Shown here: piece by piece, positions 25,218 through 34,641 of the stretch
How the letters are laid out: each line of letters begins with the position of its first letter
How positions within the stretch are numbered: the stretch's first letter is position 1
UHGV virus genome: UHGV-0135983
Length of the DNA stretch: 35,851 bases
Reading direction: 5' to 3' (one strand)
From: a virus
Notes under the pieces: model-generated
Seen by the model: only the letters and a program-made list of their open reading frames with translations
Databases searched by the model: none
What the model was told of the DNA's origin: nothing
Translations under genes and position numbers: made by a program

Positions 25218-25886
25218 TTATGCCCTCTTGTTCTTCGCTGACTCGATGTAATAACGGGGATCAACGCTGTTAAGCGTGAAGTGAACCACCGGCATATCGT
25301 CGTGACGGGTGATACCCACGTAATTCGACATGAACATGCCGAACACGCGATCGTGAAGTTCTTTAATCGTCACCTGACAATCTGGATAGTGCTTCTGGAT
25401 TAATGCCAGGATGCCCTGGTAAGAAAGCGTTTTGCCTTTCATCACGGCTACCAGCTGCTGCGCGGTGACGCTCCCGGCGTCCTGCTGTTCGTCGCTGGCC
25501 TGCAATGGGCGGATACTCTCCAGCACCAGACGGTGACGGCCAATACTGCCGACGCGCTGGCCCGTTTTTTTATCGAAATGCTCATTGGAGCCAGCAGACC
25601 AGACGGTCGCACCTTCGCTAAGGCGAACGCTTTTTTCACCTCTGGAATAAATCACGGTGCCGATGTGGGTTTTACGCCTGCGGCCGGAAACCGTAGGGGC
25701 GATAATTTCACGCTTAATCGGTTTTTGCGGGGTGATGCCGGGTACAGGGGCCGGACGTGGCGCCGCTACGAACACGGAACGGCTACGGGCGCGCGCGCCG
25801 GCGTTCATGCGCCAGAGAATAACGGGGAGCCAGTTGCAGCCATCATCCGGTTTTACTGGTTTTGGGTAATTTAAATTCGTGGTCAT
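25218..25886 (-). CDS. Hypothetical protein (222 aa)
   Basis: The ATG is preceded by the conserved GAGGAAAGACCAATG cassette. Confidence 0.6.
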   Translation of the reverse strand: MTTNLNYPKPVKPDDGCNWLPVILWRMNAGARARSRSVFVAAPRPAPVPGITPQKPIKREIIAPTVSGRRRKTHIGTVIYSRGEKSVRLSEGATVWSAGSNEHFDKKTGQRVGSIGRHRLVLESIRPLQASDEQQDAGSVTAQQLVAVMKGKTLSYQGILALIQKHYPDCQVTIKELHDRVFGMFMSNYVGITRHDDMPVVHFTLNSVDPRYYIESAKNKRA

Positions 25887-25906
25887 TGGTCTTTCCTCGG
25901 TTAAAT

Positions 25907-25923
25907 CGCGCTGGTCAGGCGCG
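25907..25923 (-). promoter_or_regulatory. Hairpin with CUGACCA loop immediately after the dnaB stop
   Basis: Minus strand reads CGCGC, CUGACCA, GCGCG. Confidence 0.45.
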
Positions 25924-25924
25924 G

Positions 25925-27331
25925 TTAAAATGCATCGGTATTGAATTTCTCAGAGTATTTACGGGGTTGTTTCCGGGGTTTCGCGGCCTCCAGTTGGATA
26001 CGTGTTTTCTCTTTGCCAACATGCTGATCCATTGACAGAAAGTGTCCGTTTTTAAATTCCTGATAAATAATTGCTCCTGCGGCGCTGAAGCGGCTTTTAC
26101 CCAGGATAATTTCAGCGACGCCAGCCGCCGGGCTTTCCGGGTTGTAAACCTCATCGCGGTACAGAAACATGATGCTGTCGGCGTCCTGCTCAATGGATCC
26201 GGAATCACGCAGGTCTGACATGACCGGGCGACGCTGAGCCGCAGGGCGGGAATCGACGGCGCGGGAAAGCTGGCTAAGCGCGAACGTCGGCGTATGCAGG
26301 CGCATAGCCATAGTTTTTAGGTTTCGGGATATGTGGGCGATCGCAAGGTCGTTACGCTCTGCCTTCGGTTTTTTAATCAGGCCAACGTAATCGACAACGA
26401 TCATCGCCAGATGCGGATACCGGCGCTTATGCGTTTCGGCAACGGCGCGGATTTGCTCAATCGTCAGATCGGTAGCATCAACGATCCAGATATCGCGCCC
26501 GTTCATGGTCTCCATGGCCGCTGTAAAGCGCGCCCAGTCCTCGTCCTGCATATCGAGGGGATTACGCAGGCGTGACACTGACATGTTTCCAGAACCCGCC
26601 AGAGAGCGTTCTACGATTTGCGCAGCGGCCATTTCCATGCTGAATATCAACGCGCCACCGCCGGCAGCGGTAACACCATCGACAATCTTCAGCGCAAATT
26701 CTGTTTTACCCATACCCGGACGCCCAGCGACGACAATCAAATCCTGCAGGTTAATTCCGCCGGTCGCATCGTCCAGTTCCTCGATCCCGGTTTTCAGGTT
26801 TCGGGTGCCCTCTTCGCCGTCCATGCGCTTCTGCATGGTTTCCATGTACACCGGCAATAATTCGCTCATGTGTACCGGCTGCACGTCGCCAGTGTCGCCG
26901 GTCATGTCCAGCAGCTGCGCAACGGCAGTTTCGACAACCTGATCGCGCTGTTCCTGGTTTATCGCATCACGAATACCATCCGCACCATCCTGCAGTAATT
27001 GCGCGATGGTTCTGCTTCGCCAGGCCTTAACCATTTTTTTGGCGTAGCCTTTGAGATTGACAATCGATGTCGGGAATTTGCAAATATCGGCGAGATTGGC
27101 CAGCGTCCCCTGTCCGCCAATGGCTTCGCTAATGTACATCATGTCAATTAAGCCGCCGCTCAAGGCCTGCGCTTTGATCACACCGTAAATCTGCCTGTAG
27201 TATGCGACGCTGAAAGCTTCGCTCGGAGTGCTGGCAATCACATCAAAGGCGTCTGGCGTGGCGCCACCGTTCATCAGGCAGCCAAGAACCAGACATTCCA
27301 GCTCCTGAGTGGAATACATCATCTGCATCAT
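25925..27331 (-). CDS. dnaB: Replicative DNA helicase (DnaB family)
   Basis: Walker A is GRPGMGKT. It has the typical DnaB C-terminal RecA-like domain, including IEQDADSIMFLYRDEVY. The protein is 468 aa. Confidence 0.9.
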   Translation of the reverse strand: MMQMMYSTQELECLVLGCLMNGGATPDAFDVIASTPSEAFSVAYYRQIYGVIKAQALSGGLIDMMYISEAIGGQGTLANLADICKFPTSIVNLKGYAKKMVKAWRSRTIAQLLQDGADGIRDAINQEQRDQVVETAVAQLLDMTGDTGDVQPVHMSELLPVYMETMQKRMDGEEGTRNLKTGIEELDDATGGINLQDLIVVAGRPGMGKTEFALKIVDGVTAAGGGALIFSMEMAAAQIVERSLAGSGNMSVSRLRNPLDMQDEDWARFTAAMETMNGRDIWIVDATDLTIEQIRAVAETHKRRYPHLAMIVVDYVGLIKKPKAERNDLAIAHISRNLKTMAMRLHTPTFALSQLSRAVDSRPAAQRRPVMSDLRDSGSIEQDADSIMFLYRDEVYNPESPAAGVAEIILGKSRFSAAGAIIYQEFKNGHFLSMDQHVGKEKTRIQLEAAKPRKQPRKYSEKFNTDAF

Positions 27332-33650: not shown

Positions 33651-34210
33651 TGACTTCCACTACTGCTATTGCCATCGCCGCGGACTATCAGAACCTGCTG
33701 CAACTGCTGGAAAGCTCTGATGACCTGACTCCGGAAATGATCGCCGATACCCTCGAAGGCATGGAAGGAGAGCTAGCCGATAAACTGGATTCCATCATGG
33801 TTATCGCACGTAATAACCTCGGCAATGCCAGCACCTGCGATGATGAAATAAAACGCTTGGCCGAACGTAAGAAGTTCTTTGAGAATAAGGATAAGGCTCT
33901 GCGTAAGTATATTCTCTCCTGCCTGATGGCGGCCGGGCTGGATAAGCTGAAAACGGCAAAAAACACTTTCACTGCTCGCAAAGGTAGCGTAAGCGTTGTG
34001 ATTGATAATACCGATCTTCTTCCCGATGAACTGGTGACTACCCAGGTTGTTATCGCGCCCGATAAAAAGGCCATCAAGGAAGCGATTGAATCAGCACAGG
34101 CAGCAGCGGCCCAGATTACCGCTGACGGCGGAGAGATACCGGAAGAACTGTTAAACCCAGTGCCGGGCGCTCACCTTGAGATTGGCGAACGTTCATTACA
34201 GGTGCGCTGA
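33650..34210 (+). CDS. Sipho_Gp157-family protein
   Basis: ADTLEGMEGELADKLDSI...EIKRLAERKKFFENKDKALRKYIL...KLKTAKNTFTARKG matches the family pattern. An ATGA overlap links it to the upstream gene. Confidence 0.7.
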   Translation: MTSTTAIAIAADYQNLLQLLESSDDLTPEMIADTLEGMEGELADKLDSIMVIARNNLGNASTCDDEIKRLAERKKFFENKDKALRKYILSCLMAAGLDKLKTAKNTFTARKGSVSVVIDNTDLLPDELVTTQVVIAPDKKAIKEAIESAQAAAAQITADGGEIPEELLNPVPGAHLEIGERSLQVR

Positions 34211-34211
34211 T

Positions 34212-34397
34212 ATGCTCAAAATCACCCTGAAGCGAGGGGATGCCATTCACGTTATTTTTCCTGATGGCACCAAAGGTAAGATCGAAGCCTGCGCACGTTG
34301 CGAGTTTGACTTTAATTTTCCCTATAGCGTGAAAATCACCAGAGAAAATGGCGCGCTACGGAATAAACCAAACCTGATTAAGCCTAATCAGAAATAA
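34212..34397 (+). CDS. 61-aa protein with a CsrA-like sequence pattern
   Basis: The sequence is MLKITLKRGDAIHVIF...NFPYSVKITREN. My recollection of E. coli CsrA is MLILTRRVGETLMIG...NAPKEVSVHREE, the same 61-aa length. In an ungapped alignment L2, T5, G9, N35, P37, V40, R44 and E45 coincide. Confidence 0.4.
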   Translation: MLKITLKRGDAIHVIFPDGTKGKIEACARCEFDFNFPYSVKITRENGALRNKPNLIKPNQK

Positions 34398-34446
34398 AAA
34401 CCAACCATCGCTAGCATAGCTGCCCCTTTTGAAAACGGAGAACGCT

Positions 34447-34641
34447 ATGCTGCGATGGCAACCGGGAGCTGTATTGCTCTCAGATTTCGATATCAAGATT
34501 GGCCGGTTATCCGCCAGCGTACGAAAGAAGACCCTGACCAGGACTGAAATCGAACGCGCATGCGAAGAAGCTGATAACGCGATCGCCGGCATGATGAGGA
34601 AAGACCATGGTCAGAAAAAACGACCTTCTCACCGACGCTGA
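34447..34641 (+). CDS. Hypothetical small protein
   Basis: The ATG at 34447 follows GGAG. It overlaps the next gene by 35 nt, so support is weak. Confidence 0.3.
   Translation: MLRWQPGAVLLSDFDIKIGRLSASVRKKTLTRTEIERACEEADNAIAGMMRKDHGQKKRPSHRR

Follow-up and report, generated by a model that had tools for sequence, protein, structure and literature searches.

A start-associated word shared by early genes of a lambdoid-type temperate phage and its predicted antisense RNA

UHGV-0135983 is a virus genome of which one stretch of 35,851 bp was analysed over its full length (hereafter the window). The window belongs to a lambdoid-type temperate phage and carries seven copies of a word of 12 nucleotides (nt), GAGGAAAGACCA, four of which stand at the starts of early genes. 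It is best understood as a recognition element, common to these sites, for a single regulator that acts in trans on translation. We suggest that it is probably the common target of a small antisense RNA (sRNA) encoded by the phage, which would block the ribosome-binding sites of these genes, with other copies in an untranslated leader serving as decoys. The initial annotation of this DNA had raised a shared recognition element for a translational regulator or RNA-binding protein as one explanation. The idea of a single trans-acting regulator stands, while comparisons among related sequences point to an antisense RNA over a protein.

Results

Distribution of the word

The exact word is enriched, with seven copies on the two strands of the window against none across 100 dinucleotide-preserving shuffles of it. 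Each position listed by the initial annotation holds an exact copy, and the longer identical extension reported there for three copies is present at 25898, 30605 and 31419 as GAGGAAAGACCAATGACC. The late region, which had been described as free of the word, contains no copies even under a looser search. Allowing up to two mismatches adds only three weak matches, all beyond position 28,700, and none falls within positions 1-25,000. Copies are likewise absent from the pR/pL region (29289-29844). The two minus-strand copies (25898 and 28547) belong to the rightward early arm and the five plus-strand copies (30557-34607) to the leftward arm. All seven copies thus point in the direction of early transcription, on two divergent arms. 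In the related phage BUCT709, whose genome is complete, the six sites (at most one mismatch) all fall within the early region (6425-14590). The 12-mer was not found as a phage motif in the literature searched.

Four copies, all exact matches, mark the starts of genes that each head a block. On the minus strand, the word stands at 25887-25898 before p222 (phrog_4183, ATG at 25886), which opens a tightly packed gene block downstream of dnaB. The second minus-strand copy, at 28536-28547, precedes p73 (ATG at 28535), which heads the p73-O-dnaB block with successive open reading frames (ORFs) overlapping by 4 nt. On the plus strand, the copy at 31419-31430 lies at the start of a gene for an exonuclease of 739 amino acids (aa) (exo; phrog_2489, ATG at 31431), heading the exo-gp157 block. 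The copy at 34596-34607 lies at the start of a DUF4224 excisionase gene (xis; the ATG at 34607 shares the last A of the word), heading the xis-int block. Although an upstream reading frame runs at its 3' end through the xis copy, third codon positions of the word are invariant across relatives. This upstream frame (34429-34641, plus strand) traverses the 12-mer as ...M(M/L)RKD... and overlaps the xis start. It has a coding-like conservation pattern in relatives and is unannotated in BUCT709.

Three of the four starts are accompanied by a hairpin 8-14 nt 5' of the word, with a covarying GC-rich stem and an invariant (C/A)UGACCA loop. At p222, the hairpin CGCGC-CTGACCA-GCGCG (25907-25923, minus strand) lies 8 nt 5' of the word. 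At p73, AGCGC-CTGACCA-GCGTT (28559-28575, minus strand) is located inside the final codons of the cII/YdaT-like gene, and at exo the loop of GGCGC-CTGACCT-GCGCC (31393-31409, plus strand) holds the TGA stop codon of p81. The upstream stop codon falls before, inside or after the hairpin, which argues that the hairpin belongs to the downstream start. The target-side hairpins contain G·U pairs in the sense orientation. For the p222 hairpin, the non-Watson-Crick stem pairs found in relatives are six G·U in this orientation versus one A·C.

Conservation beyond ribosome binding

Gene starts in relatives were anchored by tblastn. The 12-mer, with no or one mismatch, precedes p222 in 26/26, p73 in 40/40, exo in 44/44 and xis in 27/27 relatives. 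It was never found in relatives with anchored starts before dnaB, O, cII, cro, cI, p107, p81, gp157 or int. Given its absence before these nine other early genes, the word is not a ribosome-binding site of early genes in general. The word is invariant across more than 100 related phage contigs. In relatives, all 12 of its columns are at least 90% identical, with flanking columns at about 30-90%. The downstream proteins, compared over their first 120 residues, fall to 30-60% identity in more distant relatives. The position of the start codon (ATG or GTG) varies by about 5 nt, from 1 nt within the word to 3 nt beyond it. A GGAGG-like core lies 5-10 nt before the start codon of a conserved gene at p222, p73, exo and xis, and no such arrangement exists at the three leader copies.

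These patterns do not fit an ordinary Shine-Dalgarno sequence with a free spacer, since all 12 positions are conserved to at least 90% while flanks and spacing vary. The proposal that conservation of the AAAGACCA 'spacer' goes beyond what ribosome binding asks for is borne out by its invariance across variable flanks and spacing. Extended pairing with the 3' end of 16S rRNA beyond GAGG was considered by eye against the E. coli sequence, and nothing convincing emerged. The UUGG of 16S rRNA that might pair with CCAA lies within helix 45.

A scan of IMG/VR for the 15-mer returned at least 120 contigs. Among the matches listed, all contigs with two or more copies are homologous to this phage at 68-97% nucleotide identity, and single-copy contigs are mostly unrelated chance matches. 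Phages BUCT708/709, with about 85% identity over about half of the early region used as query, and a prophage of E. coli 23GD11002 are the closest annotated relatives. All of these retain the word at homologous junctions.

Copies in the early-left leader

The remaining three copies lie on the plus strand in the leader of the early-left transcript. The initial annotation had described a translation-initiation cassette at all seven sites. This description fits p222, p73, exo and xis and fails for the copies at 30557, 30605 and 30758. The 24-, 8- and 40-codon ORFs assigned to the latter are unconserved, and in most relatives the leader copies are followed by ACG, GCG or TCT. Only four of the seven copies are real initiation sites, because the leader ORFs are not conserved and the start codon is mostly missing in relatives. 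The three short leader ORFs are not genes, which improves the annotation. The first copy (30557-30568) is non-coding and followed by GTG here, and by AAG or others in relatives. The second (30605-30616) is also non-coding; it is followed by the 8-codon ORF here and by ACG in many relatives. The third (30758-30769) is the complement of the seed of the opposite-strand RNA described below.

Hairpins and partial copies of the word are interspersed with these leader copies, all on the plus strand. The stem of GAGC-CTGACCA-GCTC (30571-30585) covaries with GGGC/GCCC and GGGA/TCCT in relatives. The hairpin CCGG-GAAAGA-CCGG (30591-30604) contains the partial copy GGAAAGACC, and one of its pairs covaries from GC to CG. 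Further downstream follow GGGC-ATGACCA-GCCC (30626-30640) and a second CCGG-GAAAGA-CCGG with a partial copy (30647-30660). Another hairpin, GCGG-GAAAGA-CCGC (30425-30438), with the 9-nt partial copy GGAAAGACC, is located inside an RprA-like RNA (see Genome context). Hairpins with (C/A)UGACCA loops in the leader lie just 3' of the word and not 5' of it. Two hairpins with GACCAA loops directly precede the third copy on the plus strand. Just before the first copy (30517-30549, plus strand), a pair of hairpins, CTTCAGT-GAAA-ACTGAAG and CCCTC-GAAAA-GAGGG, is found in only some relatives. CCCTC-GAAAA-GAGGG has the pentaloop of lambda boxB.

A predicted antisense RNA

Compensatory changes, G·U asymmetry and fold energy point to an antisense sRNA of about 120 nt on the minus strand, with predicted ends at 30795 and 30674. 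The RNA would open with a 5' hairpin (30793-30765) whose 3' arm contains UUGGUC. The anti-12-mer, UGGUCUUUCCUC, on the same strand, is the exact complement of 30758-30769, and its anti-Shine-Dalgarno part, UUUCCUC, is exposed between hairpins in the predicted sRNA. Two hairpins with UUGGUC loops follow (30757-30734 and 30729-30706), and then a terminator stem (30698-30680) and a U-run (30679-30676), which corresponds to an invariant A-run on the plus strand. A minus-strand terminator was also called at the homologous place in a relative (L002).

The hairpins carry a strand-specific record of selection. In 18 distinct versions of the hairpin at 30734-30757, all nine non-Watson-Crick pairable cells are A·C on the plus strand and G·U on the minus strand, with no plus-strand G·U. 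The neighbouring hairpin has 28 A·C cells versus one G·U on the plus strand, and its minus strand is more stable by 4 kcal/mol in 15/16 versions. Counted across three helices, there are 139 G·U cells on the minus versus 6 on the plus strand, and the percentages paired on minus/plus are 99.3/94.4, 90.8/72.3 and 97.7/71.5. An alignment of 32 distinct minus-strand sequences was analysed for covariation. RNAalifold predicted 31 pairs, with compensatory changes in 16 of them. When specified as a structure, helix 30734-30757 is 99.3% paired, with double changes in 8/9 pairs. The covariation score is 0.396; shuffles give 0.206 (0/500 attain the observed score) and slid controls 0.143 at most. The predicted sRNA folds at -66.3 kcal/mol (z = -7.2), and further fold z-scores in relatives are -8.3 and -5.3.

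A predicted -10 box, TATACT (30801-30806, minus strand), overlaps the 5' untranslated region of p107 (Shine-Dalgarno sequence at 30814-30819, ATG at 30825). TATACT or TATAAT is found 5' of the anti-12-mer in 73/73 distinct relatives, mostly at 25-33 nt (range 23-48), and a canonical TGn extension of the -10 box in 33/73. A search of the whole window against Rfam gave no family at gathering score and no C4 match. In E-value mode over 29750-31450, just two matches appeared, one to RprA below threshold and one to a Trp leader at chance level. A separate trans complement of the 12-mer was sought elsewhere in the window with G·U allowed, and nothing notable was found. Apart from the sites' own antisense strands, only the pL -10 region and a G·U-rich match at 34813, put down to chance, came up.

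Complementarity and concerted change

The predicted sRNA is complementary to six sites over 13-16 contiguous Watson-Crick pairs. The contiguous stretch covers 16 nt at xis, 15 nt at each of p73, p222 and exo, and 13 nt at the first leader copy; the second leader copy is the sixth site. Other early and late translation starts reach at most eight contiguous pairs. Complementarity was scored by contiguous helices, because duplex folding of the whole sRNA with start regions of 65 nt produced open-ended structures without meaning. The UUGGUC loops of the sRNA are complementary to GACCA(A) in the 12-mer and in the loops of the target-side hairpins, such as the GACCA loop 5' of p222. The order of these elements fits antiparallel pairing.

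The copies change together across lineages. A second IMG/VR scan, which searched for the GACCAA hairpins instead of the word, revealed a sister lineage, and pattern-based recovery of the RNA gave 107 loci. In the sister lineage (24 loci, including L141, L204 and L217), every site carries GAGGCAAGACCA, the copy in the RNA gene included. The difference between this C-type and the A-type word is an A to C change at word position 5. Where the RNA gene is A-type (83 loci), the other copies are A-type in 341/341 cases, and where it is C-type (24 loci), the other copies are C-type in 86/86. No locus among the 107 mixes A-type and C-type copies. A third lineage (L157 and L179) has AAGGACTGACCA at several gene starts and one non-coding AAGGACTGACCA copy in an opposite-strand RNA of the same architecture with its own terminator. 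In L157, L179 and L139, the word takes the form (T/A)AAGGACTGACCAATGACCA, with the same architecture of hairpins and opposite-strand RNA. The different words in sister lineages suggest specificity types. Of 22 distinct internal single-base target variants, 20 replace A by G or C by U, changes that would retain sRNA pairing through G·U, and none replaces G by A. The remaining single-base target variants lie at word positions 1 and 12.

Genome context

The early region has a lambda-like layout around two divergent promoters. A pR-like promoter (29317-29289, minus strand) faces the early rightward arm, with cro (29262-29065), the cII/YdaT-like gene (29002-28556) and p73 (phrog_2465; 28535-28314), all on the minus strand. 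These are followed by an O-like initiator gene, the DnaB helicase gene, p222, further genes and the late region. The leftward arm on the plus strand includes cI (29331-29744) and a pL-like promoter (29816-29844), followed by the long untranslated leader. Beyond the leader, the order is p107, p81, the 739-aa exonuclease, Gp157, the DUF4224 excisionase and the integrase. Inverted repeats resembling TAAC-N4-GTTA, read by eye at 29265-29330 and 29785-29810, flank the pR-like and pL-like promoters. They are probably CI/Cro operators and unrelated to the 12-mer. Inside the O-like gene, four direct repeats of 23 bp (CTATGCTTTTTGGCGGCATAGGG-like), spaced 21-24 bp apart at 27945-28036, are presumably replication-origin iterons.

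An RNA similar to RprA, a small RNA of the host, opens the early-left transcript (30388-30494, plus strand). It matches Rfam RF00034 end to end, below threshold, at 32.6 bits (gathering score 70; E = 0.15). In an alignment with rprA of E. coli MG1655, ATTGCTGTGTGTAGTCTT in the 3' half is identical and is followed by a terminator. The RNA is retained just 3' of the pL-like promoter in many relatives and was not seen in the 650-nt leader stretch of the C-type locus L204. Compared with most relatives, the window has about 500 bp inserted at 29855-30385, with the pL-like promoter on one side and the 3' half of this RNA on the other. The insertion holds two convergent overlapping ORFs, one at 29927-30145 (plus strand, 72 aa) with no family match and one at 30320-30078 (minus strand, 80 aa) assigned to phrog_20080.

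The family is widespread among Enterobacterales prophages. A host-range scan for the pattern of CTGACCAGCG, a gap and the 12-mer, using one genome per species, found prophages in Serratia (three species), Enterobacter, Citrobacter (two species), Raoultella, Escherichia whittamii, Rosenbergiella and Shimwellia. BUCT708/709 (L001/L226; OM816835.1, OM816834.1) were deposited as Stenotrophomonas phages, whereas the family otherwise consists of Enterobacterales prophages. Their host attribution may deserve a check.

Discussion

A proposed mechanism for antisense control of early gene blocks

We propose that the copy at 30758 serves as the gene for the sRNA seed and that the four gene-start copies are its trans targets. 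The sRNA would be transcribed from the minus strand from about 30795 to 30674, antisense to the untranslated early-left leader. First contact might occur between its UUGGUC loops and GACCA(A), both in the hairpin loops 8-14 nt 5' of three targets and in the 12-mer. The linear seed could then pair over 13-16 nt with p73, p222, exo and xis, spanning the Shine-Dalgarno sequence and spacer and in many cases also the AUG, and thereby block ribosome binding. Repression is the likely outcome because pairing would cover both the Shine-Dalgarno sequence and the AUG. Since each target heads a tightly packed or overlapping block, one sRNA could hold down replication, recombination and excision together and could silence them against leaky transcription. 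The non-coding full and partial copies of the leader (30425-30660) might act as decoys or as additional targets. Strong early-left transcription would titrate the sRNA and also interfere with its promoter by convergence, which would release the regulon.

Several observations weigh against this mechanism. A promoter scan found no good -35 element for the antisense RNA, and the poor -35 overlaps the start codon of p107. A simple scan misses the antisense promoter because of this -35, so the -10 box was assessed by its conservation. The -10 region lies within the 5' untranslated region of p107, and its conservation could have another cause. Expression of the sRNA is predicted from this -10 box. 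The UGGUC part of the seed is paired in the 5' hairpin of the predicted fold, which leaves only about 7 nt freely exposed. The sense leader folds as well (z = -8.4), as the hairpins are near-palindromic, and the assignment to the minus strand rests on the G·U asymmetry. The xis site has no upstream hairpin. The A-to-C switch is phylogenetically a single event, which would also be expected with a co-evolving protein. The role of the leader copies as decoys or extra targets is speculative.

Alternative explanations

A sequence-specific RNA-binding protein of phage or host origin is the alternative that survives best, though we regard it as unlikely. Such a protein would recognise GAAAGACCA or GACCA in loops and beside starts, and the leader would be a loading platform or sponge in the manner of Csr. 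The sub-words GAAAGA and GACCA do recur in sense-strand hairpin loops and in the 12-mer, and a concerted A to C switch could come from co-evolution with a protein. CsrA targets also pair a hairpin with a Shine-Dalgarno site. Selection on the opposite strand of the hairpins at 30706-30793, with their UUGGUC loops, would remain unexplained by a protein, as would the terminator and -10 box belonging to that strand. The wobble-compatible target variants fit RNA pairing better. No match in Pfam, NCBIfam or PDB was obtained for the candidate proteins p73, p222, p107 and p81, which fall only into PHROG families without assigned function. CsrA with CsrB/CsrC resembles the present arrangement in the short motif found in hairpin loops and over Shine-Dalgarno sequences, and in a multi-site RNA that titrates the regulator. 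The Csr regulator is a protein recognising GGA, however, whereas the evidence here is for RNA-RNA pairing. CsrA itself is an improbable candidate because the C-type GAGGCAAGACCA has no GGA core; a GGA is missing from the GACCA loops as well.

The word might instead be a very good ribosome-binding site copied by recombination or gene conversion, or a short homology for the exchange of early modules. We consider this quite improbable. GAGG stands 7-11 nt from the start codon, as in a functional Shine-Dalgarno site, and some relatives (L049 and L002) carry extra genes between two copies of the word. The initial annotation had suggested a module boundary that promotes shuffling of early genes, and identity upstream and downstream of each junction was compared for pairs of relatives. 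Abrupt identity switches at exo (7.6%) and xis (3.6%) are somewhat above most control junctions. Breakpoints at p73 and p222 (0.4%) show no excess over controls (0-2.8%). The support for recombination boundaries is thus weak and uneven. A stretch of 12-15 bp is also short for homologous exchange, and the word is invariant despite variable start spacing, even where no start codon follows. Copying of a ribosome-binding site can explain neither the unmixed A and C lineages nor the structured RNA on the opposite strand.

The hairpins and the word could also be nut-like or processing signals, that is, antitermination sites analogous to boxB and boxA or cuts for an endoribonuclease following the logic of T4 RegB. 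The chances of this seem slim. The sites occur on both early arms, 3' of terminator-like structures, leader hairpins at 30517-30549 have GAAA and GAAAA loops similar to those of lambda boxB, and the N-terminus of p73 is Arg-rich. The lambda nut system combines boxA with one boxB per operon and the N protein, amounting to two sites per genome. The phage described here has six to seven sites per genome exactly at start regions, the 12-mer is unlike the boxA consensus, and neither an N-like nor a RegB-like protein was detected. Nor would this reading account for the opposite-strand structure and terminator.

An asymmetric DNA site for a phage protein modulating intergenic transcription, like the stoperators of mycobacteriophage L5 (Cluster A), is hardly credible: the word shares with these 13-bp intergenic words its asymmetry, its orientation with transcription and its many copies per genome, but L5 stoperators are repressor sites that also form the operator at the early promoter and are spread over both arms including late genes, whereas the word is confined to early start regions and tied to RNA hairpins, is missing both at the operator region (29289-29844) and in the late operon, has one copy embedded in coding sequence at xis, and is accompanied by RNA-type covariation with G·U that would be meaningless in duplex DNA.

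Comparison with known systems

As an observation, the closest precedent is the start-associated sequences (SAS) and ESAS repeats of Cluster K mycobacteriophages. SAS are 13-bp asymmetric words with a Shine-Dalgarno core that occur in 11-19 copies per genome, 3-7 bp before starts (PMC3203893). They are restricted to the non-structural half, have one orientation and precede genes of unrelated families (PMC3203893). An inverted repeat lies upstream of about half of them, and the words are conserved beyond what rRNA pairing needs (PMC3203893). The authors left open whether RNA or protein binds them (PMC3203893), and the function was still untested in 2025 (PMC12699233). For ESAS repeats, RNA pairing was unsupported according to the authors (PMC3203893). 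The word described here behaves like SAS in its position near starts, in a non-structural region, in one orientation and before unrelated genes. It is not itself SAS, as GAGGAAAGACCA of Enterobacterales prophages does not match the consensus GGGATAGGAGCCC, defined at up to two mismatches and in Cluster K (PMC3203893, PMC12699233). Other differences include host phylum and phage family, the covariation of the hairpins as RNA, and the presence of non-coding copies. In addition, a candidate trans-acting partner, the predicted antisense RNA, was identified here. By analogy with the non-coding copy in our phage, a single SAS copy in opposite orientation in Cluster K could mark an anti-SAS RNA.

As a mechanism, c4 of P1 and P7 and sar of P22 are closest. 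These small structured phage RNAs pair with a ribosome-binding region and block translation (immI; PMC12197685). They control one operon (icd-ant or ant), whereas the RNA predicted here would reach four blocks, on both arms, in trans by way of one identical cassette. Moreover, c4 is processed from the transcript of its own targets, whereas the gene of the present RNA would lie antisense to the leader of the early-left transcript. Heteroimmunity of P1 and P7 is set by matched differences between RNA and target, which is analogous to the A-type and C-type sets. For the predicted RNA, complementarity to ribosome-binding sites reaches 13-16 pairs at six sites against at most eight elsewhere. Differences between RNA and targets are matched in relatives (341/341 for A-type, 86/86 for C-type and a third type in L157 and L179). 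Structure and terminator are supported and the -10 box is found in 73/73, with a weak -35. Homology to a known family, such as C4 in Rfam, is lacking. Lambda OOP and anti-Q (aQ) are similar as short antisense transcripts of early regions that tune lysis and lysogeny (PMC12197685). They differ in acting only in cis on the overlapping gene (cII or Q) and in having no repeated trans target word.

Implications for temperate phages

If the prediction holds, what is new is an antisense RNA with a multi-gene regulon reached through an identical ribosome-binding cassette, combined with decoys and lineage specificities. Start-associated sequences have gone unexplained since 2011, and this RNA would give them a concrete mechanism. 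The three specificities of cassette and RNA would also be ready-made orthogonal translational repressors that should not cross-react. We tentatively raise a broader possibility, which we hold to be doubtful as yet. Repeated start-associated words in temperate phages may generally be the target sets of phage-encoded anti-Shine-Dalgarno sRNAs, the SAS of Cluster K included. In the phage described here, the word, the antisense RNA and the leader decoys might then form a commitment switch made of RNA only, and GAGGAAAGACCA, GAGGCAAGACCA and AAGGACTGACCA might behave like immunity types between co-resident prophages. Should the antisense mechanism be true, the regulatory layer would be one absent from Rfam and from the literature searched, and separate from the CI/Cro switch. 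A single sRNA would control replication, recombination and excision in a widespread family of temperate phages.

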